The translations under genes and the position numbers were made by a program. The notes below the pieces were generated by a model. That model was not told the DNA's origin, searched no databases, and saw nothing but the letters and a program-made list of their open reading frames with translations. From NCBI GenBank assembly GCA_964445435.1, contig CAYUKU010000001.1, positions 44,384 to 108,383 on the forward strand: 64,000 bases of DNA. The letters run 5' to 3'. Shown piece after piece: positions 3,401 through 64,000 of this stretch; position 1 is the stretch's first letter; each line of letters starts with the position of its first letter. The DNA is from an uncultured Gammaproteobacteria bacterium (lineage in GTDB: Bacteria > Patescibacteriota > Microgenomatia > UBA10105 > UBA927).

Positions 3401-3401
3401 G

Positions 3402-30137: not shown

Positions 30138-30635
30138 TCATTTGGCAACTACCACGACAGAGCCGGTGTCAGCCGGATTCATGTGGTTATGGTATTTCCA
30201 TGTGCCTACCTTCGTAAAGGTATATTCATATGTTCCGTTGCGTGCAACCGATGTCAGCTGATCAAAGCCAGGAAGCAATTGATGCGTCGGGTGTACGGCA
30301 GACGCAACCCACATTGATCGGCTAGACTCATTAACGAATGTCACTGCCGTTCCTTGTGTGATAGTAATCGAAGCAGGCCCAAATCCGCTATCTGAATACG
30401 TAACCACGGATCTGGTTACAGTGCCCCCGCCCTTGTTTTCCATAACTCCACTATCGGTCGTTATGGGAACCTCTACGCTTGGTCTGTCAACCGTCTGCGT
30501 CGGAGTAGCTTGTTGGGAAATTTCTCCCGTGCCCATCAACTCCTGATACGAAGGAATCTCTCCTTTAAATACGAACCACCCGACCAGAATTCCGGCGGCC
30601 AAAACCAAAAGTCCCAAAAATACTTTATTACTCAT
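30138..30635 (-). CDS. membrane-anchored cupredoxin-like domain protein, tandem paralog
   Basis: ITQGTAVTFVNESS...HPTHQ...WKYHNHMNP...TGSVVV, collinear with the neighbouring paralog. Confidence 0.45.
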   Translation of the reverse strand: MSNKVFLGLLVLAAGILVGWFVFKGEIPSYQELMGTGEISQQATPTQTVDRPSVEVPITTDSGVMENKGGGTVTRSVVTYSDSGFGPASITITQGTAVTFVNESSRSMWVASAVHPTHQLLPGFDQLTSVARNGTYEYTFTKVGTWKYHNHMNPADTGSVVVVAK

Positions 30636-45960: not shown

Positions 45961-46266
45961 TTATTTCGGATGCCATTGGGAAAAAGAAAGATCAACGCGT
46001 TCTCCCCTGAAGCGAACACCTTCGTTCTCAAGCATATTCTTCTTTCGTTTCACGCCCCCTTCCGCTGAATATCCGGTCAATCTGCCGTCTGACGCAACGA
46101 CGCGATGACACGGAGTACGTGGCGCGTCAGGATTTACCTTCATGCACATACCGACTGCCCGGGAAGCTCTCGGGCTACCGACAAGCGCTGCTACCTGACC
46201 ATAGGTGGCAACTTTTCCTTTGGGAATCTTGCGGATGAGCGTGTATACGGAATCGCGGAATGTCAT
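45961..46266 (-). CDS. methylated-DNA-protein-cysteine methyltransferase (Ogt/MGMT, DNA-binding/active-site domain only)
   Basis: PCHRVV active-site motif. 101 aa. Confidence 0.8.
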   Translation of the reverse strand: MTFRDSVYTLIRKIPKGKVATYGQVAALVGSPRASRAVGMCMKVNPDAPRTPCHRVVASDGRLTGYSAEGGVKRKKNMLENEGVRFRGERVDLSFSQWHPK

Positions 46267-47324: not shown

Positions 47325-47473
47325 GAGTATGATCAGTATACCTGGAAGAGGAAATAAACGTTATCCCCATAAAGAAGCGTTCTGATTCAACCGGATAATG
47401 GTTGTCACGTCAACTATACTCTGATTGTCAACATATGACCAAAAAGGCGTATGAGCGAGACAGTGGCAAACTA

Positions 47474-47893
47474 TTACCGAGTAGAAAAACCTGGGTTCTT
47501 CGCAGCCATCTTGATCAACTCTTCGAGGACTGTAAGATTTACCTTATTCACATCATCAAACCGGATACAGCTTTTCCCGACGCTTACTCTCCCTAGACGC
47601 GATTTATTTTTTTCTGCGATATATTCACCGTTTACTACCGCACATATGTACATAGATATGTAATTCTTCTGGTTCGCCAATGACACAATCGGCCATTGGA
47701 TCTCTTCCCCTTTATAGTTTTTGTACAAAAAATTACCGTAGCCAATCATGTTGTATGAAAAATGCGGCTTAAGACCCGGTGTCGCTCTTTGAATAAACTG
47801 ATGCAGAAATTTTATTGCTTTTCTTCGTTCATGTGGCAGTGAAGCAAGATATTCTTCGATTGTCTTGGCCTTGACAGGTTTGAACATGTTCAT
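47474..47893 (-). CDS. DUF1801 (YdhG-like) protein
   Basis: Family-like pattern. Start overlaps (ATGA) the stop of the upstream VOC gene. Confidence 0.45.
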   Translation of the reverse strand: MNMFKPVKAKTIEEYLASLPHERRKAIKFLHQFIQRATPGLKPHFSYNMIGYGNFLYKNYKGEEIQWPIVSLANQKNYISMYICAVVNGEYIAEKNKSRLGRVSVGKSCIRFDDVNKVNLTVLEELIKMAAKNPGFSTR

Positions 47894-48287
47894 ACATGTA
47901 TTTTTACTGGTTCAAGCATGCCGACGCGGTTCCCTTCCGTATCCACAAACATCACAAACGCACCGATCCCCGGTATATCCATGGGATTTCCTTCGATACG
48001 TCCGCCTGATTTCTTTACGATTTCCATGTACCCCCTCAGGTTATCGACGGAAATCACAACATGAGGGATCGTTCCCTGCTCTCCATGCAGGAAAAATCCG
48101 CCGTTGATGGCGCCTTTTCTGTTGACATCCGGTTTTCATCTACGGGCGTCGTGCCTGCCAGAAGATAGTCTCCCATTTCCGGTCCCATCTGGGTCATCTG
48201 CCAGCCGAATACCTCTTCATAGAACTTCTTTGTGCGCGCTTTATCCTTTGCCGGCATTTCGAAATGGACAACAGGATTCATTTTCAT
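47890..48287 (-). pseudogene. VOC/glyoxalase-family gene with internal frameshift
   Basis: The N-terminal 60 aa (VHFEMPAKD...YLLAGTTPVDENR) and the C-terminal 75 aa (GAINGGFFLHGEQGTIPHVVISVDN...MLEPVKIHV) are both clear VOC halves but in different frames. The shift maps to the A-run region GAAAAC/GAAAAG around 48100-48125. Confidence 0.6.
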
Positions 48288-48383
48288 AGGACCTCCGATT
48301 TGTAATGTTTCTTACACACTTACTCTACCAGAGTACGCGTATTGCGCAAGCTTTTTTGCTTTATCCCGTATAATACGGCTGCG

Positions 48384-49154
48384 ATGCGTCGACTCGTATC
48401 AACGCTTTTTACGTTCGCCTTTTGCGGGACGCTGTTTCTGGCCGCTACTCCCCGCACATTTGCTGCAGTCGTTATCAACGAGATATTACCCAAGTCAGCT
48501 GACGTGAAACAAACCTGGATCGAACTCTACAACAACGGATCAGAGTCCGTATCCCTGGATCGCTGGCGATTGGAAAATGCAAACGGAACATCGTTTATCC
48601 TCAACGCAAGTGCGATTATCTCGCCCCGGGGATTTCTGACTTTTTTCCAAACACAGTCAGGAATCACATTCAACACCGAAGGAGACACAGTGAGGTTATT
48701 CGATGAGACAAATACCTTGAAAGACGCCCAAAGTTATCCTGGCATTCTCGGTTACAACACATCCATGGGCCGCAGTACTGATGGCGCCGAGGGTTGGGTT
48801 ACGTGCTCACCTGCTCCCGACTACTCGGCAACGCCAAACAAATCAAACGACTGCCCCCCGCCGCCTACGCCAACTGCGACAACCAGTCTTCTTCCGGCTA
48901 CATCATCGCCGACCAGTTCTCCCAAGCCCACAGCAACTCCCACAACTTCGACGATCGATTCCAGAAACGCATTTTCATCCCCCCAAGTTCCGGGAGAGGT
49001 CGCGCCTCTCTCTCCGTCTCCGACGCCCACCCCGCAACCGTTTTTGGAAAGTGATCTGTATGGGAAAATTTGGGCCGCCAGTCTCGTTTTCGGCGTAAGC
49101 GCGGGCGTCACCATCATGCTCTACGGGTTATATACAACGCGGAAACGCACATAA
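48384..49154 (+). CDS. secreted lamin-tail-domain (LTD) protein with Pro/Thr-rich linker and C-terminal TM anchor
   Basis: AVVINEILPKSADVKQTWIELYNNGSESVSLDRWRLENANGT LTD motif. PT-rich low-complexity region. Terminal hydrophobic helix + RKRT. Confidence 0.55.
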   Translation: MRRLVSTLFTFAFCGTLFLAATPRTFAAVVINEILPKSADVKQTWIELYNNGSESVSLDRWRLENANGTSFILNASAIISPRGFLTFFQTQSGITFNTEGDTVRLFDETNTLKDAQSYPGILGYNTSMGRSTDGAEGWVTCSPAPDYSATPNKSNDCPPPPTPTATTSLLPATSSPTSSPKPTATPTTSTIDSRNAFSSPQVPGEVAPLSPSPTPTPQPFLESDLYGKIWAASLVFGVSAGVTIMLYGLYTTRKRT

Positions 49155-49283
49155 TAGTTTATTTTGCGAATTAAGGCCACGGGAGATCCATTCTCAAACG
49201 GATCTCTTATCAAAAGCGATTATCTATTACCGTAACTTGGCGAGAGCATGCACTCCTCAACACCGTGTGCTATCCTTATACTT

Positions 49284-49715
49284 ATGGGAAAACAAAAGGG
49301 TATTGCCGCGATTGCCGTCGGATTGATTCTTCTTTTGGCCTTCATCATCTTCACGTCCCTTCGCGGAAACACTCCGCCGACGTCAGGCGTCAATCCCATC
49401 TATACCGTCCCAAACAGCAGCCCGGTAGGCACGTATACCGGTACCATCAAACGCGGGTCTGATATCACCGAGAAAACATATTGCTCCAACGGATATTACC
49501 TGGTGGCAGACGCCGGCACATACATCAAGGACCAGGCCATGATGATTCTTCTGAAAAATCCCGGAGACGAGCCTCAATCGATGTATGATGGGGTCGAGTT
49601 TGTGGGGAAGAAAGTGCGCATGACGGCAATGGAATCCAATAGACAAGCCTTCTGCGAAGCCCTCATTTGCAGCTGCGATGACTATCTTCTCGTCGACACC
49701 GTTACCCCCCTCTGA
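49284..49715 (+). CDS. membrane-anchored hypothetical protein
   Basis: N-terminal TM. No domain recognised. Confidence 0.35.
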   Translation: MGKQKGIAAIAVGLILLLAFIIFTSLRGNTPPTSGVNPIYTVPNSSPVGTYTGTIKRGSDITEKTYCSNGYYLVADAGTYIKDQAMMILLKNPGDEPQSMYDGVEFVGKKVRMTAMESNRQAFCEALICSCDDYLLVDTVTPL

Positions 49716-49745
49716 CAGAGGTATCCGATTTGCTATGATAAAGAA

Positions 49746-50975
49746 GTGAGTATCGCCCTATCGATATTTCTTCTATTAACCACAGTCGTTGCCGTAAGCC
49801 TATTCCTGCGGCAACGCACCCAGCTCATCCGGCACAAAAAGAAAATCTCAGAATTAGAGCTTCAGCTTACCAGTGCGACAGCCGACGCTGCCGCTACGCG
49901 AGCGCAGGCCATCAGCCAGGATGAATTCGTCCGTCTCTCAAGCCACGTGGTATCCCGCATGGACCAGGGCATTCTTTGTATCGACCAAAAGGGCATGGTG
50001 AGACTTGCAAATCCCTATGCAGAAAAACTGCTTGGCGGCACACCCCTAGTCGGAAAACCGTATACAGAAGTTCTCCATTCGCTGAAAATTGCAGGAACGA
50101 CTGATTTTTCCGCGTTTGAAGCAGCCATTGGAGGAAACGGATTTACACTTCCAGACAACATAGAACTCGCCACAGGACACGGGAACATTCCCCTGAGCGC
50201 TACGCTCGTGCCGCTTTTTTCCGATCTTTCCGGCACATTTACCCTATTTACTTTCGCCGACAACAGTAGGAACGTTGCCGGAATCGCAGAAGAAAAGGCT
50301 TTTTTCTCCGCCGCGGCACACGAGCTTCGGACCCCTCTTACCGTCATACGACTGGCTGTTTCTATCCTGCTTTCAAAAATCGATACGTTCGACAAAGCGG
50401 CGTTACTTGATCATCTTAATAAAATTAATATCTCCTCAGAACAGCTTCTGAATCTCATCAATGACCTTCTTAACGTATCGCGGATAGACCAGGGACGACT
50501 CATTGTTGAGAAGACTCCGTTTGACATCATTTCCCTCACCGATGAGGTCGTAAAAGAACTCACCGATCTGGCAAACACACGAAGGCTCTATATACATCAT
50601 GATCCGTCAACCAACGAGTATCGGACAGTCATCGGTGATAAAACGAAGGCAAAAGAAGTACTCACCAATCTTATAAGTAACGGCATCAAATACACTATTC
50701 AGGGAGGAATCACAATTACTCATGAGCAAAATGGGGGGTCCTTGGTCACCGTCGTTTCCGATACCGGAAGCGGTATTCCGGCAGGGTCAAAGAGCTTGCT
50801 CTTCAAGCGGTTTCTGCAGGTCGGAGAGGCGCGCCAGCAATCATCGGCAAAAGGAAGCGGTCTGGGACTCTATATATCCAAAAAATTTGCTCAGCTGATG
50901 GGCGGGGACGTGAAACTCGAGTCAAGCGAACCGGGGAAAGGATCGACGTTTGCCTTTCGTCTACCGCTGGGGTAA
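49746..50975 (+). CDS. sensor histidine kinase (TM + PAS-like + HisKA + HATPase_c)
   Basis: H-box FSAAAHELRTPLTVI. N-box LISNGIKYT. G-boxes DTGSGIP and GSGLGL. Confidence 0.8.
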   Translation: MSIALSIFLLLTTVVAVSLFLRQRTQLIRHKKKISELELQLTSATADAAATRAQAISQDEFVRLSSHVVSRMDQGILCIDQKGMVRLANPYAEKLLGGTPLVGKPYTEVLHSLKIAGTTDFSAFEAAIGGNGFTLPDNIELATGHGNIPLSATLVPLFSDLSGTFTLFTFADNSRNVAGIAEEKAFFSAAAHELRTPLTVIRLAVSILLSKIDTFDKAALLDHLNKINISSEQLLNLINDLLNVSRIDQGRLIVEKTPFDIISLTDEVVKELTDLANTRRLYIHHDPSTNEYRTVIGDKTKAKEVLTNLISNGIKYTIQGGITITHEQNGGSLVTVVSDTGSGIPAGSKSLLFKRFLQVGEARQQSSAKGSGLGLYISKKFAQLMGGDVKLESSEPGKGSTFAFRLPLG

Positions 50976-50981
50976 GGCATT

Positions 50982-51221
50982 TTGCAATCTAGTAAACTAG
51001 ATAAAGCATATCGAAGCGCTACCATAGAAATACTTATCGACGTGATCCGCACGCACCCGTTCATCATGCTTCACGGAAAAATGTACGAGAATAAGTATTT
51101 CTATACCGCGCCGGAATATAGCGCCGGACTCCTCAACCGATTCAAGGCCGAGGATTATGACGTCATTCTTTCCATTATCGAAGAAGACAAACCGGAGGCC
51201 ATCGGAAAAATTTCACATTAA
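50982..51221 (+). CDS. small hypothetical protein
   Basis: 79-aa ORF just downstream of the kinase. No receiver-domain motifs. Confidence 0.3.
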   Translation: MQSSKLDKAYRSATIEILIDVIRTHPFIMLHGKMYENKYFYTAPEYSAGLLNRFKAEDYDVILSIIEEDKPEAIGKISH

Positions 51222-51280
51222 ACCTGTGCGGCACACACGAACTGCCCTGTAGATTCCGTACGTCGGAACTCTATTTTTCA

Positions 51281-51613
51281 TTAACGGAAAACTCCGAGGA
51301 ATAGGAGCGCAAAAACAAACACAGTGATACCTGCAAAAGCGGCAACGGTCTGCAGGAAAAGGTTCGCCCCTTGTTTTTTATGACCATCCAGAAGAAACTG
51401 AAGCGGCTGGTAGACGAAAAGATACCCCATGACGGCAGCAGACAAGGTAAAAAGGGAAATCATCGCAACCGGTATTGCCATTGTTTTTTCCGAGTTAAGC
51501 AGCCTGGAACCATAAAACATAAACCACGCGACCGCCGTTATATATAAAGAGGCAGCAACCGCATTGACAAGAGGATTCTTGGTCATAGCTTCTTGAGTAT
51601 AGCACGTTCCCAA
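51281..51613 (-). CDS. small integral membrane protein
   Basis: Three hydrophobic helices. Confidence 0.4.
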   Translation of the reverse strand: MGTCYTQEAMTKNPLVNAVAASLYITAVAWFMFYGSRLLNSEKTMAIPVAMISLFTLSAAVMGYLFVYQPLQFLLDGHKKQGANLFLQTVAAFAGITVFVFALLFLGVFR

Positions 51614-51683
51614 GAAAGCATTTACAAATATGCGGTGAGATCTTATTGTTAGATAAGATACATTTACAAAGGAGGTGAACAGT

Positions 51684-51893
51684 ATGCAGAATATGTCAGG
51701 TGCGGTTGATCATCTCAAAAATCATGTCGGTAAATGGCCAGCGACCAAAGCGGAGCTTGTCGCAGCATGTAATAATCTTTCCGACTTCACGCCGGAAGAC
51801 AAGGCGGAATTTGAATCCAAACTTCCTGAGGGAACCTACAACACCCCCGGAGGACGTGATGAAGGCGCTTGGGTGGTCATAAATTTGGTATGA
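51684..51893 (+). CDS. DUF2795-like small protein
   Basis: AAAGGAGGTG SD 6 nt upstream. HLKNHVGKWPATKAELVAAC resembles DUF2795. Confidence 0.4.
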   Translation: MQNMSGAVDHLKNHVGKWPATKAELVAACNNLSDFTPEDKAEFESKLPEGTYNTPGGRDEGAWVVINLV

Positions 51894-51953
51894 AAAGCTC
51901 CTCGATTCTTGGTATTACAATGCCGACGGGGAGCTTTTTGTTGGTTAAATTCC

Positions 51954-52385
51954 TTATCTCACTGCTTTTTTGACAAGATCGGCGATTTTCTTCTCTTCTG
52001 TATCGGTCAGTTTTTTCAAGGCATAGGAAACCGGCCACATGTTGTCTTCGTCGAGATTAGCCGCGTCCTGGAATCCCAACGTAGAATACCGATATTTGAA
52101 TTTACTCGCGTTTTGGAAAAAACAGACCACCTTACCGTTTTTGTCTGCATACGCAGGCATGCCGTACCAGGTTTTGGGTGTGAGGGATGGGGCGCTTTTC
52201 CTGATGACATCGTGAAGTCGTTTGGCCATGGAGCGATCCGGTTCCGGCATCTGTGCGATCTTCGCAAGTACGGCTGCTTCCCCATTTGCCTTGCCAGAGC
52301 GCATTTCCTGATACCGCTCCTTCATTGCCTCCCGCTCCTCATCAGAGAAACCTTTAGCTTTCGTGTTTGATTTCGCGTTTGTCAT
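51954..52385 (-). CDS. DUF1801-like protein (second copy)
   Basis: [19 protein letters not shown] pattern. Confidence 0.4.
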
Positions 52386-52398
52386 GATCGTTAATGTA

Positions 52399-53013
52399 TC
52401 ACGAATGAGAACTTAACGAAAACGAGCCGGTTGCAACTCTTCCAGCGCGCCTATAGTTTGCGAAGATTACTCCGCTTGGAGAAGTTGTGGCATCTAATAA
52501 TGTAAAGGCTGCGGGAATAGCTCCCTCGCCGAATAATCGTTTCCCTTTTCCGAGCGTTATCGGGAAAATCTTTAACCAGAGCTCATCAACTAAGTCATGT
52601 TTGAGAAGCGTTTGAAGCAAATTCCCGCTGCCGTACACGTGTAAATTAGGACCGTTTTCGGCTTTCAGTTTCTTTAATCTTTCGACTACGTTATTATGTA
52701 TAACCACCGAGTTATTCCATGTAGTTTTTTTGAGCGTGTGTGAAACGACATACTTTGTGGCATCGTTGACTCCCGGCCAATTGTCTTCGTGTTGCGGCCA
52801 ATACGAAGCAAAAATTTCAAACGTTTTCCTGCCCAGAAGCAGACTGAACGGCTGCTTCATCTGCTTAGCCATCATTTTTCCTGAATAATCATCGAAATAT
52901 GGGACCGTCCATCCGCCATATGTAAAGTTACCGGATCTATCTTCTCCCGGCCCACCCGGAGCTTGCAAAATACCATCAAGCGTTACAAATTCAAGCGCAA
53001 TTATTTTCCTCAT
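52399..53013 (-). CDS. RibD C-terminal domain / dihydrofolate-reductase-like protein
   Basis: [26 protein letters not shown]-terminus typical of the RibD_C/YwjB family. Confidence 0.75.
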
Positions 53014-53064
53014 AAGGCTGGATGTGATTGTCGTCTCCGTTTCAGTGAAGCTGAAAATACTTTT

Positions 53065-53565
53065 TTATTCGCCGGCTTTTTTCATTGCTTCAAGGTCAAG
53101 TTTCTTCATTGGCAGAAAAGCGGCGGTTACCGCCTCAACCTTTTGCGGGTCGCGCATATACTCACCCAAAATCCTTGGAACTATTTGCCATGTGACGCCA
53201 AAGCGGTCTTGACACCATCCGCATTGTTCAGCTTCAGGAACAGCTGAAAGCTTTTCCCAGAAGAAGTCAATTTCTTCCTGCGTTTCGCACTCAACTATGA
53301 AGGATGTCGAGCCATTCAGCTTGAATTGCTCAAGAGGGCCACCGTTCAGAAACATAAAACTGGTGCCATCCAGCTCGCATTCAGCTGTTAACACCGACCC
53401 GGCGGGCCTGCCGGAAACGTCTTCTGATGCCTTCGGTGATTTGGTAACATCTCTCATGGTTCCTCTGTGATCACCTGGCGCGGCATTGAACGTATCTGTG
53501 TAGTACTGCGCTGCCTCTTCCCCGTTATTCTTGGCAAACCAGAGACATGTAATGAGTTTACTCAT
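53065..53565 (-). CDS. VOC-family protein (PhnB / 3-demethylubiquinone-9 3-methyltransferase-like)
   Basis: KLITCLWFAKNNGEEAAQYYTDTF...GWCQDRFGVTWQIVP. Confidence 0.7.
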   Translation of the reverse strand: MSKLITCLWFAKNNGEEAAQYYTDTFNAAPGDHRGTMRDVTKSPKASEDVSGRPAGSVLTAECELDGTSFMFLNGGPLEQFKLNGSTSFIVECETQEEIDFFWEKLSAVPEAEQCGWCQDRFGVTWQIVPRILGEYMRDPQKVEAVTAAFLPMKKLDLEAMKKAGE

Positions 53566-53566
53566 A

Positions 53567-53995
53567 TTATTTACTGGAAGAATATTCAATGATCCATTCA
53601 ATACCGTATTTATCTCGAAACATACCCGCGTAGGAGCCCCATGGGCTGTCCCCCATGGGCCCTTCTACATCTCCTCCGGCTGAAAGGCCCAGAAATAATC
53701 TGTCCGCCTCTTCTTTGCTTTCTACGCGTACCAAAATTTTGCTTCGATTTTCTTTCTCATTTACTCGCCCCAAAACCTCCGGCACGTCATTGGCTATAAG
53801 CATGGTAGTGGCACCGATGGGTAAAGCGATATACATTATTTTGTTTTCCTCTTTTTCTGCTACGGGGAATTCAGCGCTCGCGATATCTTTAAAGCGCACC
53901 ACTTTCGCAAACTCGCCACCAAAAACGGATTTATAAAAGGTAAACGCCTCTTCTGCGTTTCCGTTGAAGTTGATCCAGGGGTGTAATGCGGCCAT
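53567..53995 (-). CDS. VOC/glyoxalase-family protein (PhnB-like)
   Basis: HPWINFNGNAEEAFTFYKSVFGGEF...FRDKYGIEWIIEY. Confidence 0.65.
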   Translation of the reverse strand: MAALHPWINFNGNAEEAFTFYKSVFGGEFAKVVRFKDIASAEFPVAEKEENKIMYIALPIGATTMLIANDVPEVLGRVNEKENRSKILVRVESKEEADRLFLGLSAGGDVEGPMGDSPWGSYAGMFRDKYGIEWIIEYSSSK

Positions 53996-54158
53996 ACTGT
54001 AATCTATATCACACTAAAGCAAGTAAATAAAACAGTTTTGTCCGAGAAACGGGAATTTTCCGACACATTGACTAGTGACTTACCTAGAATATCCAGAATT
54101 TACCACCAAAGAAATTAATCGATTTCTCAACTTTTAGTCAAAGCAAGATGCCAATCAT

Positions 54159-54486
54159 TATTGATTTTCATAGACTTTCTTACCGGCTTCTGTGATCAGT
54201 CCGAGTCTCAGTAATTCAGCATATCTTTTTTGTTCATCGCTGACCACTGACTGTTCTTTTTTCTGGGAGTAAACCGCACCATATAGGTTTCTTTATCAAT
54301 GCCTTTTTCCATGCTGTCTATCCAACCAAAGCACAAAGCCTCATCCAGTAGATTTTGAAAAGTGACAGTCTGCTTCCCGCTGGACTTCTTGTGTAAAGTT
54401 ACCCAAATCTCTTTTTCATTCTGGTGATACTATCGTAGCCAATGACGCCACTCGACTTGAGCTTGAGGGGAAATAGTGTTTGTCAT
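54159..54486 (-). pseudogene. YdeI/OmpD-associated-family gene remnant (at least 2 frameshifts)
   Basis: Minus-strand translation gives MTNTISPQAQVEWRHWLR* / QNEKEIWVTLHKKSSGKQTVTFQNLLDEALCFGWIDSMEKGIDKETYMVRFTPRKKNSQWSAMNKKDMLNY* / LRLGLITEAGKKVYENQ* in three different frames. No ORF of 60 aa or more in the track. Confidence 0.6.
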
Positions 54487-54543
54487 ATCATTAGTTTAAT
54501 GGGAAATTGCCCTTTTGCCTAATTTGCTTCATTCGAAAAATGG

Positions 54544-55013
54544 ATGAAAAATCTGTCAAAACTTGTTATTTCTATTGTTGGTTGTGAAGTAGTAGGAATT
54601 CTGGGGAGCGTATTTACGGTTTCCTCAATTTCCTCTTGGTACGCCACTTTAAATAAGCCCTTCTTTGCGCCACCGAACTGGATATTTGGGCCTGTTTGGA
54701 CACTCCTATATTTTCTAATGGGCGTAGCGTTTTATCTGATCTGGAAACAAGGTTGGAAGAAGAAAAAAGTTGCTACCGCCGGCAAATACTTTTTCGCACA
54801 ATTAGGGCTCAACTTTATCTGATCACCCGTTTTCTTTGGCTTACGATCGCCGCTATTGGCTCTATGTGTTATTATCGTCCTGTTGGCGCTGATCGTGATG
54901 ACAATCAAAAAATTTTATCCCCTGTCCAGATGGGCAGCCTACCTGCTTGTCCCATATCTTTTCTGGGTGAGCTTTGCTTCCGCACTGAACGCTGCCATCG
55001 CTATTCTTAATTG
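54544..55013 (+). pseudogene. tspO: TspO/MBR (tryptophan-rich sensory protein) gene interrupted by a single in-frame TGA at a conserved Trp position
   Basis: WYATLNKPFFAPPNWIFGPVWTLLY...LNFI-TGA-SPVFFGLRSP...AAYLLVPYLFWVSFASALNAAI is a full TspO in one frame. The TGA at 54820-54822 aligns with the conserved W of the LNxxWxPxFF motif. Confidence 0.65.
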
Positions 55014-55109
55014 ATCTTTGGCTCCACCTCATAGATATGTTCCGTAACCGCGTGATTGAGATAAGCATACCACTCGTCAATCTCAAAACACTGTTTGAAA
55101 CGTTTCACA

Positions 55110-55721
55110 TCACACCTGCGTTCGCTTGACCATGATGGTTGGAACACGAATAGTAAAACCACTTTCTTCCGGACTAATGTATATGGTTTCATATTTTTCC
55201 TGCAATTTCTCCCGAAGCTTTTCCAGATATACGTCTTTTTTTAGTTTTCTGCCTCCCGTCTGGTGTGCCCAAAAAAGAGCCATAGCATCGCTCCCGTCAC
55301 CTGCTTGTATCGTAAACGGCAGATGTATTTTTTGCGCGTATGCTTCTATCTCATGGATAAATGCCTGAACACTTTGGTTTTTCGCATGAAACAGTCTGTC
55401 CCTGTACATGAGTGAGAATGGATAATATCTCGTTATAAAACTCCAAAATCGGTCGTGGATAGTCATGATGACCAGAACAATTATTACCCGTATGCCTTTG
55501 TTAAAGTCCGAACGTCTTATTTCAACATTTCTTGGCACATGGACGAGCTTGTAAATATACCGAGCAAATGGTTTTGGCAAAAATAGGATAAGATATACAC
55601 CGAAAAGAAGGAGAAACAGAAAAAATAATCCTATCGTAATATGAAGTAATTCAAGGAATTTGAGAAACAGAAAAAACGCTACTACTGAACCCAAAACTAT
55701 ATACTGTGTTTTTACGCTCAT
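55110..55721 (-). CDS. membrane protein, unknown function
   Basis: Two N-terminal TM helices plus a soluble C-terminal domain. Confidence 0.4.
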   Translation of the reverse strand: MSVKTQYIVLGSVVAFFLFLKFLELLHITIGLFFLFLLLFGVYLILFLPKPFARYIYKLVHVPRNVEIRRSDFNKGIRVIIVLVIMTIHDRFWSFITRYYPFSLMYRDRLFHAKNQSVQAFIHEIEAYAQKIHLPFTIQAGDGSDAMALFWAHQTGGRKLKKDVYLEKLREKLQEKYETIYISPEESGFTIRVPTIMVKRTQV

Positions 55722-55992
55722 ACATCAGTTAACTTGTAATTCCCTTACCCGTATTTTTTTCACGTCGCCTATAATGGTGTTTTCATCATACTCCTGTGGA
55801 CGAACATTGATAATAAGACCGATATTTTCTGGCTCATGAAATAGCTCTTCTGCGTATCTAAATCTATGGCCAAATGCCGTTGAAAGAGATACGGGCTTAC
55901 CTGATTGTTAACCACCTTTAACCACCTTGGAGGTGAAATATTAGGTAGCCTATTAAGACAAAGTCAATCAGGTACTAAACCAAAGACAAAAC

Positions 55993-56148
55993 TTAAACCT
56001 TAACCTTAATAAGATCCCTAATACGACGTTCAACCACGCTCTTATACAAATATTGATACGCAGTCACTACATTTTCCATAAGTTGTTCTTTTTGTTCAGA
56101 AGTAGCCGTATCAAGATTTGTTGTAACACTAATTTTCCGTTTACTTCT
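55993..56148 (-). CDS. small ORF (about 52 aa) translationally coupled to the upstream nuclease gene
   Basis: MRSKRKISVTTNLDTATSEQKEQLMENVVTAYQYLYKSVVERRIRDLIKVKV. Its start overlaps the nuclease stop by 8 nt. Confidence 0.3.
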   Translation of the reverse strand, partial: RSKRKISVTTNLDTATSEQKEQLMENVVTAYQYLYKSVVERRIRDLIKVKV

Positions 56149-56896
56149 CATATTGCCTAACAGCACTGCGATATTTACAGAAGTCACAGTCTTCCCCTGA
56201 TTCAGGTATGCCGTCACTTTTCAAACATTCAATGGCTTTGAGAATAGTTCCCTCAACCCAATCTGTATTGCCTTTATAGGGAATGAGTTTGATATCAAAT
56301 TCCAATTTGGCGTCAAAGGCCTCTTTGTCGGTATTGCCATTGCAGTAGACGAAATAGCCAGTATCAGACACTTTGAAGCCGTTTTCTCTAAATAGCCATT
56401 GGTATATTTCCATCTGACGTTTGTATCCATCCTGCCACTCGGCATCTAGGGTTACTTCTTCATCTTTGGATGTAGCCTTGTAGTCAACCACGATATATTC
56501 TCTCGATGGCGTCACCCACATATCATCCACACCACCCGTGATAACAACGTTCGTGTTATCCACTCGGACAGTTATACCGCCCCGTAGTGAATCCCGCCAT
56601 TCGTCGATCTTTTCGTGGGCTAGTGGTATAGCGTCGATGCCGTACTTCTCCATTAATGGATGTCTGGTGCCTTTGGCCCGATGAATATCAAACTCTTTTT
56701 TCAGGAGTTTATCGACGGCAGAGTTAAGGGAAAAAGGGTATCCAGGCGGTTGGGCCACACCAAGTCTACGATCCAGATAAAAACAACGGGGACATGTAAT
56801 AAAATTGTTAATTTTTCCACGACTCAAACGAAACAACTCACTAGAGTTTGGATCGTAAATATTTCTTGTTCGGTTTGGATTGTAATACTGGCTCAT
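56141..56896 (-). CDS. Cas4/RecB-like PD-(D/E)xK nuclease with Cys cluster
   Basis: N-terminal CPRCFY and C-terminal C-x12-CDFC cysteines. Core D...VVDYKATSK (D-x-K) nuclease motif. Confidence 0.55.
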   Translation of the reverse strand: MSQYYNPNRTRNIYDPNSSELFRLSRGKINNFITCPRCFYLDRRLGVAQPPGYPFSLNSAVDKLLKKEFDIHRAKGTRHPLMEKYGIDAIPLAHEKIDEWRDSLRGGITVRVDNTNVVITGGVDDMWVTPSREYIVVDYKATSKDEEVTLDAEWQDGYKRQMEIYQWLFRENGFKVSDTGYFVYCNGNTDKEAFDAKLEFDIKLIPYKGNTDWVEGTILKAIECLKSDGIPESGEDCDFCKYRSAVRQYEK

Positions 56897-59379
56897 TGTT
56901 TGTTTACTTTATTACTTATGATTTTTTGCACCAATCGTAAATCCTCGTCGTTATAAAGCCTAAATCTCACAGATTGATACTGGTTATCTCGTACCAATAC
57001 TGAATCTGGATGTGACAACCCATTTTTTAATTGTTCTACTATTTCGGGGGTAGATGAGCCGAGTTCGCCATATACCCAATGATTTGCGTAATAGTAAAAC
57101 AACAACAATTCTTCACCCCGTTTAATACTGTGATACGAACCAGCTCCACCTTTTGAAATGTACACATCGCCGTCAGGGAACTCTTCATCAACCCACTGAG
57201 GAATAGACGTAACAGCTTTTTTGACAAATTCGTCTTTCACTCTGGCAATTGTTTCATCTTCTGTTTCTGGTGGTTTAGTTACGCTTACCTTAACCTCCTC
57301 CTCGTTATCGTCATCACCCTTTACGCCCCGCAACACCTGGGCAAACCATTCAATCGCCGCTTCCGCTTCTCGTTGCAATACAAAGTTAATTTCTTTGATG
57401 TGTTTAACCGCATTACGGAAATCTTTTAGAGTTATAAATCGTTTCTCTGTTTCGTACTTAGAGCCAAAGAATATTTCGAAGTGTTCCCAGTTTTTGAGAA
57501 TGATATTGGAATAATCCATGACGTCGCATTGACACAAACGATCATATGCATCCAGTTTCTCCTCAACAACATAGGGGTTCTTACGCAGGTATTCTGCTAG
57601 TTTTACTTTTACTTTCCCTTGAATATCTCCTGGCACTACCTGATTCCAATAATCTTTGCCAATTTTTTCGGACAATTGACTATTGATAAGTAAACGCAGT
57701 TTTAATTCAATGTCGTCTAAAGCTTTATTTGCATTTACGCCAAGGATCTGGATAATCTTTGATCCCGTTAGTCTTTCAAACTCTCGCTTGATAGCTTCTG
57801 CACGCTCTTTGATAAACAATTTATAGTTATCTTCTTTAATGGCATCACCGTAGTTGATTAAATGCGTTTCCAGTGTGTCATTAAATTCAGGATTTTCATT
57901 TTGATAATGGGCGAAATAATCGCTAGGTTTTTGATCTAATATTTCCTTATTCAATTCAGCAGGGATAAAGCAAAAGTTGGCTATTAAATTTTCCCCACCA
58001 ATCCTGTTTTTTGAGAGAAAACGCCTCGGGAAGATATGATGTTTTTCTGGACTATTAAAGCTTGAGTAGAAATGTCGATCCATTGGAATAAGTCCATTGG
58101 TTTTGAAATGCCTTGGGTTTCTACGGGCCAACATACAGAAGATAGCATTTCTAAGCGCAGATTTTGTACCAATTGTGGCAGTGGCAATCTTTTCCTCATC
58201 CGCCGTAATAGCAAAGTTTATCTTCACATCTTTGCCATTTAGGAGCTTATCGAATATTTCCCGACGATCTTCTCCCATCTTGCTTTCCATAGCTGCTGTG
58301 TATCGCTCGCTTAAAGATGATTTCCAAAACCACTCATGTACCACATCTGTCATCTCTTTACTTAATGCCCGCCCATCCGTCTTGAAATACAGATAGGCCA
58401 ATAGCGGAATGAATGACGGGTATGGAGTAAATTCAAAGATTTTAACCCCTAGATTGGCCGACAAATGCTCAACCGCCAACTCAATCGCATTAGCAATCTC
58501 ATTCCAATTCTCCTTTATTTCCTCTTTTTTTAGCTGTAATTGATATATCTTGCTACAAAACCCTTTGAGAATGAGCGAAATGGCGTGTGTAACTACTTCT
58601 GGGCTAATATCTCCAAAACCTTTCGATGCAATCCTTTCCCGCAATTGGTTGTAATTCTCCTTTAGATCAAAATCTTCACCCCATGTACTAGCTACCACCA
58701 AATCGAACAACGACAATTTCTTACCACCCTGGTTGATGCGTTCAAATATGACGCTAGCATTGTTGAGTTCGACGTTATAGACAGTTACCACACTAAGGGG
58801 GTAAGTGGTGAATATCCGATGACACTCCATGAACACTTCCTGCCGTTCGGGTGACAGTTTGCGAAACATCTGCATGTGATCTTCACCCAAGACTTTGTAT
58901 AGAGGAATATATCTATCGCTTTCCCGCTTCACCTCAAAGACTGATTGGTTGCCATTATCATCAGGCTCTTTTTTGTAGTAATCCAAGTCTAAGCAGATTT
59001 GCGAACAGTCAACCAATTTTGTTTTATTGCCATCCTTAAACTCAACCCGAACACCATGCCAGGCGGCATAGAGTGAACAAATACGTTGTTGGCCGTCTAG
59101 GATGAATTTCAATTTTTCATCCTCTCTTGGTTTAGGTGGTGTTATTCCAAGTTCAGGTAGATCCCGATAAAACAGATTGTATTTGCCCGTTGTTTCCCAA
59201 AGAAAAAAACTACCAATCGGATACTCTTTGTAAATGCTATCCAACAAGGCCACAATTTTGCTTCGTTCCCACACAAAGTCCCGTTGAAATCGGGGAACAC
59301 GAAGAGTTCCTTCTTTTAGGTAAGTAAGTAGGGAAATGATTTGTTTGTTTCCCTCTGATTCAATTTTTGGTAGCTTCAT
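56893..59379 (-). CDS. GmrSD-like DUF262 (ParB/Srx-fold, DGQQR) + DUF1524 (His-Me finger) protein with C-terminal HEPN-like and unknown domains
   Basis: N-terminus VPRFQRDFVWERSKIVALLDSIYKEYPIGSFFLWE ... ILDGQQR. Middle EKHHIFPRRFL...NLIANFCFIPAELNKEI (DUF1524). Later Rx4H motif FRNAVKHI. The final about 130 aa is aromatic-rich (LLLFYYYANHWVYGE). Confidence 0.65.
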   Translation of the reverse strand: MKLPKIESEGNKQIISLLTYLKEGTLRVPRFQRDFVWERSKIVALLDSIYKEYPIGSFFLWETTGKYNLFYRDLPELGITPPKPREDEKLKFILDGQQRICSLYAAWHGVRVEFKDGNKTKLVDCSQICLDLDYYKKEPDDNGNQSVFEVKRESDRYIPLYKVLGEDHMQMFRKLSPERQEVFMECHRIFTTYPLSVVTVYNVELNNASVIFERINQGGKKLSLFDLVVASTWGEDFDLKENYNQLRERIASKGFGDISPEVVTHAISLILKGFCSKIYQLQLKKEEIKENWNEIANAIELAVEHLSANLGVKIFEFTPYPSFIPLLAYLYFKTDGRALSKEMTDVVHEWFWKSSLSERYTAAMESKMGEDRREIFDKLLNGKDVKINFAITADEEKIATATIGTKSALRNAIFCMLARRNPRHFKTNGLIPMDRHFYSSFNSPEKHHIFPRRFLSKNRIGGENLIANFCFIPAELNKEILDQKPSDYFAHYQNENPEFNDTLETHLINYGDAIKEDNYKLFIKERAEAIKREFERLTGSKIIQILGVNANKALDDIELKLRLLINSQLSEKIGKDYWNQVVPGDIQGKVKVKLAEYLRKNPYVVEEKLDAYDRLCQCDVMDYSNIILKNWEHFEIFFGSKYETEKRFITLKDFRNAVKHIKEINFVLQREAEAAIEWFAQVLRGVKGDDDNEEEVKVSVTKPPETEDETIARVKDEFVKKAVTSIPQWVDEEFPDGDVYISKGGAGSYHSIKRGEELLLFYYYANHWVYGELGSSTPEIVEQLKNGLSHPDSVLVRDNQYQSVRFRLYNDEDLRLVQKIISNKVNKQ

Positions 59380-59382
59380 AAT

Positions 59383-62300
59383 TTATTTTTCTCCCGTCCA
59401 ATCTTTTGCTAATAACTCCGCCTGTTCCAATACAATCTTGGTAGCTCCATCCTGTTTGTCTGGCGGGTAGTTATATTTCTTGAGCAACCGCTTGATATAA
59501 ACCCGTAATTTAGCTTGAATGCTTTCCTTGATCGTCCAGTCGATAGTGGTATTTTTACGGAGCATATCCACCAGCTCCCGAGCCATTGCCTTAAGGGTTT
59601 CATCACCTAGTTCTCTAATTGCGCTTTCGTTATTAGAGAGTGCGTCATAAAATGCCACTTCTTCCTCGGTTAATCCCATGCCCTTGCCTTTGTCTTTTTC
59701 GTCTTTGATCTTCTTGGCTAGTTCTAGAAGTTCTGCGATTACCTGCGCCGCTTCAATCGTCCTGTTCTGGTACTTACGAATTGTTTCCGCGAGCATTGAG
59801 GCAAATGAACGAGATTTAACCAGATTTGTTCTGGCAAAAGTTCGGAGTTCATCGTTTAAGAGTCTTTTCAGAAGTTCCAAAGCTACGTTTTTGTGCTTCA
59901 TATTTTTCACTTCTTCCAAAAACTCCTCGGAAAATATCGAAATGTCAGGAGTCTTGATCCCAGCTGCAGAATAGATATCTATCACCGCGTCCGATGTCAC
60001 CGCCGAAGATACTATCTGTTTAATCGCTACGTCATACTCTTCATCAGTTGGCCCTCCGGAACGTGCTTCCATTTTCAGAATCGCGCCCCGTACAATCTGG
60101 AAAAATCCTACTTCATCTCTAATCTCAATTGCTTTCTCATGGGGAACGGCTAGTGAAAATGCCTTCGATAATTCTGATACCGCCGCAAGATACCGTTTTT
60201 TGCCATCAGGAAGCCCCAAGATAAAATCAGTTGCGCCAGAAATTGTTTGCGTGCGTAAAGAGGCAGCAGAGCTAAAGTAGTTTTGGTAGCCAAACCCGTG
60301 ATACATTCCCCGAACCACTTCGTATTTTTCGAGCATTACCGATACCGCCTCGTCTTGAGGAATAGCTGTTTCCTGTCTATCGGATTCCGAATAATAAGAT
60401 AGAGCCTCCTTTAATTCAGGCGCAATGCCGATGTAGTCAACGATAAGTCCGCCTTGTTTGTCCTTATAGACACGATTGACGCGAGCAATAGCTTGCATCA
60501 AACCATGCCCCTGCATGGGTTTGTCTATGTACATCGTATGCAAGGACGGCACGTCAAAACCCGTCAGCCACATATCCCGCACAATAACTAGTTTCAGGGA
60601 ATCGTCGGGATCTTTCATTCGTCTAGCCATTTCATCTAATGCATGTTTGGCCCGAATGTGGGGTTGATACTCCTCTGGATCAGCCGCCGATCCTGTCATC
60701 ACAACTTTCAAAAATCCTTTGTTGTCATCTCCCTCATGCCAGTTTGGCCGAAGTTTTATGATTGCGTTGTATAGTTCCACCGCAATCCTACGGCTCATCG
60801 CCACGATCATGCCTTTGCCATCAATGGCAGAGAGTCTATTTTCAAAATGATCCACCACGTCACGGGCAATAAGAGCAATGCGTTTTTCCGATCCCACCAT
60901 TGCCTCGAGCCTTGCCCACTTACTCTTCAATTTTTCCTTGCGCTCAACTTCTTCACCCTCGGTTAGTTCTTCAAATTCGGGATCAATCTTGGGCTGTTCT
61001 TCTTTCTTTAGTTCAATACGGGCTAGTCTGGCCTCGTAGTAGATCGGTACTGTGGCATGATCTTCAACCGCACGGGTAACATCGTATACATCGACATATT
61101 CACCAAATACCGCCCGTGTGTTTCGATCTGTCAGCTCGACAGGAGTGCCAGTAAAACCGATAAAGGAGGCATTGGGGAGAGCAGAGCGCATGTGTTTGGC
61201 AAAGCCATGAATAAATTCATACTGGCTCCGATGGGCTTCGTCGGCAATAACCACAATGTTTTTTCGATCAGACAGCATCGGATATTCCGTGTGTCCATTT
61301 TGAGGTAAGAATTTTTGAATAGTCGTAAATATCACCCCACCCGATGCCACCCGTAACAACTCTTGTAACTCTTCTCGGTTCTCTGCCTGTTTAGGAGTTT
61401 GCCGTAAGAGTTCATGACAACGAGAAAAGATGCCAAACAGTTGGTTGTCCAAGTCGTTGCGATCGGTTAAGACGACGAGAGTCGGGTTGTTGAGAGTTTG
61501 GATGATTTTACCCGCATAAAACGTCATGGTTAGGCTCTTTCCCGATCCTTGCGTATGCCAAACTACACCCGCTCGTCTGTCTCCCTCTTCCTGTGTCGCC
61601 TTAATCGTGCTTTCAATGGCCTTATTGGTAGCAAAATATTGGTGATACGCTGCCGCTTTTTTGATAGTATGCTCGCCATCGGTTTCAAAAACAATGAAGT
61701 TGGCGAGTAAGTCCAAGAGTCGGGTTTTATCAAAAATACCTTTTAAGAGTACCTCTAGCTGGGGTAGTGCATTGGAGGCTAGCTCTTTCCCATCTACAGT
61801 TCGCCAACGGGTAAACCATTCCAGGTTGGCCGAAAGCGTCCCCATGCGGGCCTCAATTCCGTCACTAATGATGGAAAGTTCGTTATAGGCAAACAGAGTG
61901 GGAATATCCCGTTTGTAGGTTTGGATTTGGTTAAAGGCATTTTTAACTGTGGCTTTTTCATCTCCTGGGTTTTTTAGTTCGATAACAACTACAGGTAACC
62001 CATTCACAAACACCACCACATCGGGCCGACGATTCACATTGTTTTCAATAATGGTGTATTGGTTAACAGCCAAAAAGTCGTTATTTGCAACGTCGCCAAA
62101 GTACACCAATCGTACTTTATCACCAGCTACAGTTCCATCAGAGCGCATATATTCCACATCCACACCATCCCGCAGATAGGAATGAAAGATTTTGTTATTG
62201 ATGATCAGATTCGGGGTAGTGTGGGCCACCTGCACCACTTTCTTAAACGCCTCTTCTTTAGCATCTTGGGGAATATTGGGATTTAGTTTTTCAATAGCCG

Positions 62301-62463
62301 TAAGCAATCTGTCCTCAAGTACCACGTCGCCATAACTAGCCCGTTCGGGATGTTCGCCATCGGGAGGTGGGGCAATCTCTGGGCCACCAATAACCGAATA
62401 ACCCAACCCCTCGAGCCATTCAAGTGTTGCTAGTTCTAGATCTGTTTCTGTGTATTTAGTCAT
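59383..62463 (-). CDS. hsdR: type I restriction enzyme R subunit
   Basis: 1026 aa. N-terminal nuclease domain. SF2 helicase motifs [24 protein letters not shown] and QAIARVNR. Confidence 0.9.
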
Positions 62464-62468
62464 ATTTA

Positions 62469-63623
62469 TTAAAATGATATTTTGTCATCATCCAATTCCA
62501 CTTCAAAGGAAGTTACAACTTTTGTATCGGCAGGTTGTACCTCTTCTGTAGAATTGTTAACGATAAATTTTGCCCTTTCAAATAATTCATCAAATGTAAT
62601 AATTTCAGGGTTAGATAAATTTCTCCTGTATAACTCAAAAGTCTTTTTCTTAGAATTGGAGTCCAACTGATTACAATGGCCGATTACCAATAATCCTTTT
62701 GGGCTGCATGTGGTAATACCGCCTAATTCTTCTCTGTTTTCGTCTGTTCTTGAACCCTCAGTTTCCCATTTATTTGCGTTAACTTGGAGCTGTGATACAC
62801 CACCAACTAATTCTTTTCCAATCTCCCATGCTCCATTTCTATATTCATCATTCCCGAGTAATGCAGTACTTGGTTTTTTGATTTCTACTAATACTGTAAA
62901 TCTGCCATCAGCGGCTGTATCCATCAGATAATCTCCACGTTGATTTCCTGAACCAAATACATTGCCTCCACCGTACTGAGGCTGGGATGTTATCAAATGA
63001 AGATATTGGTATTTCAACCCTAATCCGAAAATCCACTCATTGTTCTTGAAGAAATTTTGCCAATAGGCCTCGTCCTTATCTTCTGTTAATGAATTTTCAA
63101 ATTCTCTTAAGGCTGTTCCCCGTTCAGTTTGCACCCGAGAATATGCAAGCCGTGTGGCCAAGTGTGGCTCCTTTTGTACTAACTGTTCCCAAACCTCATT
63201 TCCGTAATCCTGCTCCAATAACTTGGTAACGAAACTCTTTCTCTTTTCATCAACCCTGATAATTTCGTCCTCCTTGGCCACGACATAGCTCTGTTCTAAC
63301 CAGGGTAATTCTTGCTTTGAAATGCGATATAGATTTACGAGTGCTTCAAACAAATTTTTTAATGCCAAGCTTTTAAGCTCAAATTTAATTCCCTCGTCTT
63401 TTTTTAATTCGTTGAGTTTTACCGAAGATAAATCTTGCCATTCATCATGCGCCCCTTTTCTTTGCACGATAATATACCCCTTAAGTGTGGCCTTAGGATC
63501 TTTCGGGTTGTCTTTAATGACAACTCCTCGAAAGACTTTTCTAAAGGTACCGCTTTCTTCAATAACAACATCGTCTGTTTTTGCAACATTGCTCGACACT
63601 CTGGTTAATTGATATTGCTGCAT
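62469..63623 (-). CDS. PD-(D/E)xK nuclease, Shedu/DUF4263-like, inserted between hsdS and hsdR
   Basis: GDYLMD...[10 protein letters not shown] (D231/D235 ... E247-x-K249). C-terminal [11 protein letters not shown]. No Walker motif, so not PrrC. Confidence 0.4.
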
Positions 63624-63624
63624 A

Positions 63625-64000
63625 CTAATTTTTCACTCTTAATTTCCCACTCATTAATCTTGGTAATAGAGAATCTCGCAGTGCGCCCAATTGTTCGTTC
63701 TCATCCATTTTTGCATTGATTTCTTGATATATGGCTCCGCATATCTGATTAAATCGATCTAGAATATCCTTACTCGGTGACAATACTGACATTTGTTTTA
63801 GATGTGTTGGCCCAAAATTTGCTTGCACACTACCTGCTGATAATCGTATTTGTTCACTTAAAAATTCTTCAGATTGTAAATACTGATACATAAAGGGATA
63901 ACTTACATTATCTTGGGGCCTAAATCGAATAACGCTCGTATTAAGTAAAAGTGGTAGATGTGATTTGCGCACAATTGCATTTTTACCTAAAGTTCCCGAT
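63625..64000 (-). CDS. hsdS: type I restriction enzyme S subunit (C-terminal part; gene continues beyond window end)
   Basis: C-terminal conserved helix EQLGALRDSLLPRLMSGKLRV typical of HsdS. The ORF is open at the window edge. Confidence 0.75.
   Translation of the reverse strand, partial: SGTLGKNAIVRKSHLPLLLNTSVIRFRPQDNVSYPFMYQYLQSEEFLSEQIRLSAGSVQANFGPTHLKQMSVLSPSKDILDRFNQICGAIYQEINAKMDENEQLGALRDSLLPRLMSGKLRVKN

Follow-up and report, generated by a model that had tools for sequence, protein, structure and literature searches.

Where a run of small genes lies between core genes and a defence island, as it does in the genome examined here, the question is whether it was acquired horizontally or belongs to the resident chromosome. 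We analysed a 64,000-nt stretch of contig CAYUKU010000001.1 (hereafter the window; all coordinates are positions in it), in which this patch of genes spans 47.4-55.0 kb. The initial annotation had described the interval 47.4-55.1 kb as an accessory patch of stress and detoxification genes, horizontally acquired and now eroding next to a defence operon. We find that four genes of the patch carry five lesions (one each in a VOC-family gene, a DUF2795-like gene and a TspO gene, and two in a DUF8412 gene) and that broken genes cluster here beyond chance. However, the patch quite probably is a native, long-resident variable zone with strain-specific decay, and the horizontally mobile or foreign segment would be the adjoining defence island, which begins at 55,025.

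Open reading frames (ORFs) were called with translation table 11 and families were assigned with Pfam. The organism is identified by sequence similarity as a Candidate Phyla Radiation (CPR) bacterium (Microgenomates, Candidatus Chisholmbacteria-like): two Candidatus Chisholmbacteria metagenome-assembled genomes (MAGs) recovered from the Rifle aquifer encode kinases with 61% identity to its histidine kinase, several metagenome contigs show 58-62% identity to it, and genome and metagenome scans with this kinase gave no match above 62% identity. A close relative, about 95% identical in DNA, is represented by two contigs from ERR15113708, L053 (window positions 49522-53234, 94.9% nucleotide identity) and L059 (53206-55024, 96.0%); these contigs do not reach 47.4-49.5 kb, where synteny was judged from a distant relative only. 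The latter is the locus L061 (Logan, SRR25435964), whose backbone proteins are 52-65% identical to those of the window. Three Logan contigs of SRR10095373 match the window itself, namely L063 (50786-52458, 100%), L057 (52496-54571, 100%) and L058 (54543-62963, 99.99%, with one mismatch). Exact-protein look-ups with the kinase, the DUF1801 protein encoded at 47474-47893, a 77-aa VOC fragment and the GDSL protein returned no match, and thus the VOC frameshift and the interval 47.4-49.5 kb have no close comparator.

The first broken gene, a VOC/bleomycin-resistance-like (Ble-like) gene at 47890-48287 on the minus strand, is split into a 77-aa and a 55-aa ORF by loss of a single T in the T-run at 48115-48118 (an A-run on the gene strand), a -1 frameshift. 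Its homologues read ...PVDENRM...KGAINGGF..., and the window follows them in frame to ...ENRMSTEK and then continues in the -1 frame at GAINGGFF; a slip in the other T-run was excluded because the homologue alignment places it at 48115-48118. The repaired protein of 132 aa matches Glyoxalase over profile positions 3-119 of 121, aligns end to end with intact homologues of 127-135 aa and shares 76-79% identity with intact CPR proteins of 128-131 aa across 95-98% of its length; all VOC homologues listed are full length. The frameshift of one of three VOC genes, reported in the initial annotation, is therefore upheld, with repair restoring the Glyoxalase match. The second lesion, which had escaped that annotation, lies in the DUF2795-like gene (51684-51893, plus strand), where the C-run at 51844-51848 has gained one base (C5). 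In the close relative the run is C4 and the gene, of 65 aa and ending ...TPEDVMKALGWS, is intact, whereas in the window product the last 10 residues are swapped for 14 unrelated ones. The family label is weak, with no match to DUF2795 (PF11387) as encoded and a score of 22.9 bits once repaired, below the cut-off of 25 (profile positions 14-54 of 54).

The DUF8412 pseudogene (54158-54486, minus strand), of the YdeI/OmdA N-terminal domain type, carries two lesions in a gene of about 109 aa, a CGG>TAG change at codon 19 (54430-54432) and a contraction from T7 to T6 at 54226-54231. The gene is intact in the close relative (109 aa) and in L061 (112 aa); the label DUF8412 (PF28474) comes from precomputed annotations of these relatives. 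It had been described as a YdeI-family remnant with at least two frameshifts; the family link and the breakage stand, but the lesions are one -1 frameshift and one TAG stop. The DUF8412 domain forms the N-terminus of proteins of about 190 aa whose C-terminus is OmdA (PF13376, "YdeI or OmpD-associated"), whereas the nearest relatives, 109, 112 and 110 aa long in L059, L061 and P0361, respectively, stand alone at about 110 aa without OmdA. The roughly 160 bp downstream of the gene were considered as debris of a lost OmdA domain and rejected, since OmdA gave no match at E <= 1 in the gene or in the three frames of those 160 bp and the orthologues are stand-alone genes of this length. DUF8412 here is a two-lesion pseudogene of a short gene and not the wreck of a long one. 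A PDB sequence search with the DUF8412 protein gave no match.

The TspO/MBR (TspO_MBR) pseudogene, at 54544-55014 on the plus strand, is interrupted by TGA, as had been noted. The change is TGG>TGA at 54820-54822, at the conserved Trp of profile position 84 in an NF-W-S motif, and Pfam returns two fragments on either side of it (profile positions 2-83 and 85-143, scoring 94.5 and 67.9 bits across the two pieces). With the stop read as Trp, the match to PF03073 is full length (profile positions 2-143 of 145) and rises to 174.2 bits, above the gathering threshold. As it stands, the gene is cut at codon 93 and would yield a fragment of at most 92 aa with roughly three helices. Both L059 and L060 have TGG at this codon and encode an intact TspO of 155 aa. 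Thus, the VOC, DUF8412 and TspO frames are disrupted relative to full-length intact orthologues, which bears out the description of the members as decaying, and the DUF2795-like, DUF8412 and TspO genes are all intact in the close relative.

A fifth truncated ORF has a different history. The MEDS-domain remnant of 79 aa (50982-51221, plus strand), recognized by its match to the MEDS protein of L061, lacks its 5' part and corresponds only to residues 151-212 of that 214-aa protein, at 79% identity. The same stump is present in the close relative, and a PAS-like 119-aa gene together with the first ~150 MEDS codons is deleted in both; this is an older event than the four gene disruptions.

Lesions of this kind in a MAG could be sequencing or assembly errors. 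Three of the five are single-base changes in homopolymer length, the classic error type, and the VOC frameshift lacks a second source. However, four of the five are exactly reproduced in independent Logan assemblies, including the C5 run of the DUF2795-like gene (L063), both DUF8412 lesions (L057) and the TspO TGA (L058), so that reproduction and absence from the close relative coincide for three of the four genes. Moreover, two lesions are substitutions, one of which (CGG>TAG) needs two base changes, the runs are only 4-7 nt long, and no split domain occurs in about 40 upstream ORFs that were checked, so errors are not scattered across the window. We consider artefact very unlikely.

Alternatively, the interruptions could be functional, with TGA read as Trp or selenocysteine (Sec), programmed frameshifts, or phase variation at homopolymers. 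The TGA does replace precisely a conserved Trp codon, homopolymers are the site of three lesions, and a nonsense variant of the neighbouring HsdR gene in the same sample hints at on/off heterogeneity nearby. Against this, TGA terminates 21 of 65 intact genes, which excludes recoding; long table-11 ORFs tile the window and TGA is an ordinary stop in it. No suppressor or Sec tRNA occurs within the window, DUF8412 carries a TAG stop as well, and the close relative encodes plain intact genes. Phase-variable loci usually have simple-sequence tracts of at least 8 nt with length heterogeneity, whereas the tracts here measure 4, 5 and 6 nt in the window (5, 4 and 7 in the intact forms), shorter than typical contingency tracts. 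Regulated interruption is thus hardly credible.

The lesions are also unevenly distributed. Broken genes make up 4-5 of 17 in the patch and 0 of 50 ORFs in 1-47.3 kb (Fisher p = 0.003-0.0006), a clustering that exceeds chance. About 40 of the ~50 upstream ORFs were checked with Pfam, with "intact" judged by domain coverage and not against a close relative; their matched domains are mostly full length, none is split, and the ORFs tile the DNA without unexplained gaps. This distribution bears on the possibility that decay is genome-wide in the strain, through a mutator phenotype or a population bottleneck in an episymbiont, with the patch as just one sample of it. The reduced genomes of CPR bacteria, the HsdR nonsense allele from the same sample and the breakage, in this strain only, of 3 of the 11 genes common with the close relative would all fit such decay. 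However, Pfam showed no split or truncated gene among the ~40 ORFs checked in the 47 kb upstream, and we regard genome-wide decay as highly improbable.

We next consider the origin of the patch. Its composition is that of the upstream DNA: GC content (GC) is 0.475 at 47.4-54.0 kb and 0.481 at 1-47.4 kb, and the tetranucleotide profiles correlate at r = 0.92, with no foreign signature. Four-kilobase segments of the patch give r = 0.87-0.89, inside the leave-one-out range of the core (0.82-0.92). GC at third codon positions (GC3) of the patch genes deviates from the core mean by z = -1.2 to +2.4, with most within about 1.3 standard deviations, and is normal for TspO (z = -0.8) and DUF8412 (z = -0.1). 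A compositional break at 54.0 kb suggested by the GC profile was overruled by per-gene GC3 and the break in synteny, which give 55,025.

Gene order points the same way. The interval 49522-55024 is collinear at 95-96% nucleotide identity across the two contigs of the close relative. In L061, the order is GDSL hydrolase (-, 52% identity), VOC (-, intact, 79%), Lamin-Tail-Domain (LTD) protein (+, 52-56%), kinase (+, 65%), MEDS (+), membrane protein (-), DUF8412 (-, intact), TspO (+, intact, 77%), the glyoxalase VOC142 (-, 88%), a 58-aa ORF (-), PDDEXK (-, 88%) and GmrSD (-, 85%), and 11 of the 12 genes common with the window keep order and orientation. The adjacency of kinase and DUF1801 recurs in L002 and L030; L002 also has PDDEXK-GmrSD-HsdR nearby, with low GC, and guaB-purA-purB where the window has RibD_C to TspO. 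Thus, the scaffold, including its adjacency to the defence slot, is older than these species. The filling between the anchors differs. Compared with L061, the window alone has DUF1801, a 155-aa ORF, the DUF2795/DUF1801/RibD_C/PhnB-like block and a 203-aa ORF, and L061 has instead LigD_N, a BBE-type oxidase, a fused double PhnB-like gene, a PAS-like ORF, full MEDS, OmdA as a separate 98-aa gene, DUF6448 and a trypsin-like protease. "Accessory" is therefore apt in that gene content varies between relatives, but not in the sense of acquired cargo, since the scaffold is shared. No integrase or transposase family was found in any patch ORF, and the only tRNA in the window (3401-3473) lies outside the patch. 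No boundary repeat turned up at the patch, although flanking repeats were not specifically searched for.

These results bear directly on the proposal that the whole of 47.4-55.1 kb is a recent, strain-specific, horizontally transferred cargo island now undergoing erosion. In its favour, the content between the anchors differs from both L061 and L002, several members are 72-88% identical to genes of distant CPR bacteria against 52-65% for the backbone, the patch adjoins a defence island, and total GC of the DUF1801 gene at 47474-47893 is low (0.40, z = -2.9). However, GC, GC3 and tetranucleotide signature are those of the core, the close relative, at about 95% DNA identity, has 49.5-55.0 kb in synteny, collinearity of the scaffold extends even to L061 with its 65% identical kinase, no mobility gene or tRNA lies in the patch or at its edge, and composition and synteny break at 55,025 rather than at 47.4 kb. 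With native composition, synteny in both relatives and no mobility genes, the idea of an acquired cargo block is largely refuted for the block as a whole, and we consider it unlikely.

We favour instead a resident zone in which a conserved scaffold (GDSL hydrolase, VOC, LTD, histidine kinase, MEDS in whole or as a remnant, small membrane protein, DUF8412 and TspO) would hold, between its anchors, small genes or short operons of CPR-wide "housecleaning" families (VOC, PhnB-like, RibD_C, DUF1801 and DUF2795) that are gained and lost among relatives. Four dispensable genes would have been knocked out recently, after the split from the ~95% DNA-identical relative, by ordinary spontaneous lesions, that is, three slips of one base in homopolymers of 4-7 nt and two substitutions to stop codons. 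This would be gene loss in progress under relaxed selection; we infer both the relaxed selection as its cause and the non-essential stress or detoxification functions of the genes. The phenomenon itself is ordinary and of a known kind. It resembles regions of genomic plasticity in its conserved scaffold and flanks, the swapping of small genes between relatives, the adjoining defence island and the clustered strain-specific inactivation by slippage and nonsense mutation, and differs from them in having no mobility genes, native composition and a small CPR genome as its setting.

Several points weigh against this reading. The Logan contigs may share reads with the window, in which case they exclude assembler error but not platform error, and the VOC frameshift is seen in one assembly. 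The DUF2795 frameshift alters the C-terminal 10 residues only and may leave function intact. The background for the clustering is 47 kb and not the genome-wide pseudogene rate. Codon differences (for example, 13 synonymous and 7 non-synonymous in TspO) are too few for a test of relaxed selection by the ratio of non-synonymous to synonymous change (dN/dS). Finally, that RibD_C, TspO and VOC share 72-83% identity between CPR classes could reflect either slow evolution or exchange between lineages.

The remaining genes of the patch complete this picture. The families listed in the initial annotation, namely DUF1801 (twice), VOC (three times), RibD_C, DUF2795, a YdeI-family remnant and TspO, are present where it had placed them, and the strands alternate as described; the spacers called AT-rich are only mildly so (GC 0.33-0.51 against 0.45 in core spacers). 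That annotation did not mention that about 3.3 kb inside the patch (48.3-51.6 kb) encode functions other than stress or detoxification, namely the LTD protein, the 155-aa ORF, the kinase and the small membrane protein.

Following the genes from left to right, the intact 139-aa DUF1801 gene (47474-47893, minus strand; PF08818, E = 3.5e-12), 58% identical to a DUF1801 gene in L062, shares its first 4 nt with the 3' end of the broken VOC gene, and the two thus probably form an operon. The secreted LTD protein, 270 aa with a C-terminal membrane anchor (48342-49154, plus strand; PF00932, E = 2.5e-16), is a conserved backbone member, collinear with its L061 counterpart. It is followed on the same strand by the 155-aa ORF without family match (49248-49715), whose C-terminus is present in L053 and which is absent at the same position in L061, and by the PAS-HisKA-HATPase histidine kinase (409 aa, 49746-50975; Pfam), the lineage anchor, 61-65% identical to the Candidatus Chisholmbacteria MAG kinases and the L061 kinase. 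The small membrane protein of about 101-110 aa (51281-51613, minus strand) is 55%, 46% and 43% identical to those in L061, L054 and L062, respectively, and adjoins the same families in other CPR loci.

The four genes from 53995 down to 51954, all on the minus strand, probably form an operon with DUF1801 last. They encode VOC142, an intact VOC/glyoxalase protein of 142 aa (53567-53995; PF00903 and PF06983), 88% identical in L061 and identical in L057; a PhnB-like VOC-fold protein of the 3-dmu-9_3-mt family, 166 aa from ATG (53065-53565; PF06983, E = 3.7e-31); a RibD_C "dihydrofolate reductase family" protein of 204 aa (52399-53013; PF01872, E = 1.3e-24), 97% identical in L053; and the second DUF1801 protein, 143 aa (51954-52385; PF08818), 68-73% identical and kinase-adjacent in L002 and L030. 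Scores exceed the Pfam gathering thresholds for the two DUF1801 genes (47.0 and 30.2 bits), RibD_C (87.6 bits) and the VOC-fold genes (PF00903/PF06983; 108.5, 40.8 and, repaired, 44.3 bits). NCBI-annotated VOC, PhnB-like, RibD_C and DUF1801 genes of many bacteria belong to the same Pfam families, and the "stress/detox" label for those of the patch is drawn from the family names. Neither the unknown ORFs nor DUF8412 received an informative name from NCBIfam, and a promoter and terminator scan showed no difference from shuffled sequence.

The families of the patch recur together in other CPR genomes. RibD_C, TspO and the VOC gene at 47890-48287 have thousands of matches each, of which the best 120 listed are 65-83% identical. 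RibD_C has hundreds of matches at 73-80%, all named ones being CPR, and TspO is 72-83% identical to CPR TspO proteins of 156 aa. Nearly all named matches are CPR (Staskawicz-, Davies-, Woyke-, Woese-, Pace- and Levybacteria, Saccharimonadia and Minisyncoccia), and the exceptions among those listed are one Micrarchaeota VOC, one Pseudomonadales-labelled TspO and one VOC labelled "bacterium". The 690-kb contig L054 (GC 0.42) has, within 10 kb, PhnB-like followed by RibD_C (79%), the small membrane protein, OmdA, DUF1801, a DUF2795-like ORF (59%) and glyoxalase, and the 140-kb contig L062 (GC 0.38) carries a cluster of three DUF1801, two RibD_C, TspO, PhnB-like, DUF1428, RidA, DUF1761, DUF2200 and DUF4287. 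Local orders recur as well, PhnB-like before RibD_C also in L054 and RibD_C before DUF1801 also in L062. Thus, judging from the clusters in L054 and L062, such patches are a recurrent CPR feature; we found no description of them in CPR in the literature.

The identity of RibD_C, TspO and VOC looks high for such divergent lineages, although this is our own judgement, made without a core-protein comparison. One could go further and propose that the small genes (TspO, DUF8412, VOC, PhnB-like, RibD_C, DUF1801, DUF2795 and the ~100-aa membrane protein) act as one functional module that is co-localised throughout the CPR and possibly mobile between lineages, given the 72-88% identity across CPR classes, the recurrent orders and the fusion of one DUF8412 homologue to a DNA alkylation repair enzyme. 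This seems to us improbable. If it held, the genes would serve together against a single class of small-molecule or alkylation stress, and the near-simultaneous loss of four members would be the coordinated collapse of an unneeded pathway rather than a set of independent neutral hits. The fusion is found in P0375, where a DUF8412-domain homologue is joined to a DNA alkylation repair enzyme domain (PF08713), and a stand-alone gene with an MGMT-type alkyltransferase domain lies at 45961-46266 of the window; together they hint that DUF8412 may relate to alkylation damage.

From 55,025 onward the sequence is of a different character. As the initial annotation stated, the patch adjoins a defence operon, with PDDEXK, GmrSD, type I HsdR and Shedu SduA identified by Pfam. 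The defence island occupies 55025-64000 on the minus strand and comprises a 203-aa membrane ORF (from 55110), a 74-aa ORF, PD-(D/E)XK, GmrSD, HsdR, SduA and an ORF cut by the window end. GC is 0.41 both at 54-64 kb and at 55,025-64,000, and the tetranucleotide correlation with the core falls to 0.63 and 0.62, respectively. Beginning with the 203-aa ORF, gene GC3 lies at z of about -1 to -5, and the small ORFs and SduA have the lowest values. Homology of the close relative to the window stops at 55024, ten bases past the TspO stop codon; beyond this point the relative encodes a 267-aa membrane protein and has a REP-associated-tyrosine-transposase-like fragment. The latter is a 104-aa ORF (L059 2893-3207, plus strand) with a weak match to REP-associated tyrosine transposase in the HYHLL motif region, and it may mark a mobile junction. 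PDDEXK and GmrSD are 88% and 85% identical to their L061 counterparts, against 52-65% for backbone proteins, which suggests recent exchange.

Atypical composition, a variable junction in L059 and discordant identity thus coincide at 55,025-64,000. With differing cargo in addition, a horizontally acquired genomic or defence island is a fitting description of the segment that begins at 55,025 and runs past 64,000; its far boundary lies beyond the window, whereas the patch at 47.4-55.0 kb is without these properties. The slot beside TspO or DUF1801 is kept among relatives (window 55025-64000, L061 11850-20471 and L002 17137-21233), but its cargo differs, being PDDEXK-GmrSD-HsdR-Shedu SduA in the window and PDDEXK-GmrSD-SMC-like-MmeI-like in L061. 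Within the island, the Shedu SduA homologue (SduA_N and SduA_C; 62469-63623, minus strand) is directly upstream of HsdR, where HsdS or HsdM might be expected. The HsdR gene itself (59383-62463, minus strand) differs in L058 by a single G>T at 60890, which splits the 1026-aa type I restriction subunit into ORFs of 490 and 524 aa; the nonsense allele appears to coexist with an intact allele in the SRR10095373 sample.

On the other side of the patch, the first 47 kb are dense with core genes, among them TsaD, a class II-type ribonucleotide reductase with NrdR, an adenosylcobalamin (AdoCbl) riboswitch, two PBP1A genes, Fe/Mn superoxide dismutase, UppP and phosphoribosyltransferases. The tRNA at 3401-3473 (minus strand) is tRNA-Ile with anticodon TAT (UAU), which is uncommon in bacteria, where AUA is usually decoded by a lysidine-modified CAT tRNA. 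Amid the core genes, 5689-8037 (minus strand) encodes a 782-aa protein with VirD4/TraG-type coupling-protein and HerA-like ATPase signatures. The riboswitch, of the AdoCbl-II type (10570-10637, minus strand), scores 37.5 bits, just above the gathering threshold of 36.5, and is flanked by a PduO-type cobalamin adenosyltransferase gene (10641-11192) on one side and a 662-aa ORF without Pfam match (8513-10501) on the other; the ribonucleotide reductase (11199-13628) and NrdR (13651-14097) genes are upstream of it. Tandem cupredoxin-like paralogues (Cupredoxin_1) are found at 29708-30148 and 30138-30635 on the minus strand.

To conclude, this work is chiefly a correction, in that the patch would be resident DNA losing genes and not a recent import, with the foreign segment starting at 55,025; it opens no long-standing question. 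The locus provides a dated example of strain-specific pseudogene formation, with five lesions in 6.7 kb since a divergence of ~5% at the nucleotide level. CPR genomes are considered streamlined and gene-dense, with few pseudogenes, and, if so, such pseudogene formation would be unusual. For work on CPR bacteria (Patescibacteria), the locus draws attention to small gene families that recur together across genomes and to a defence hotspot beside TspO whose cargo differs between relatives.

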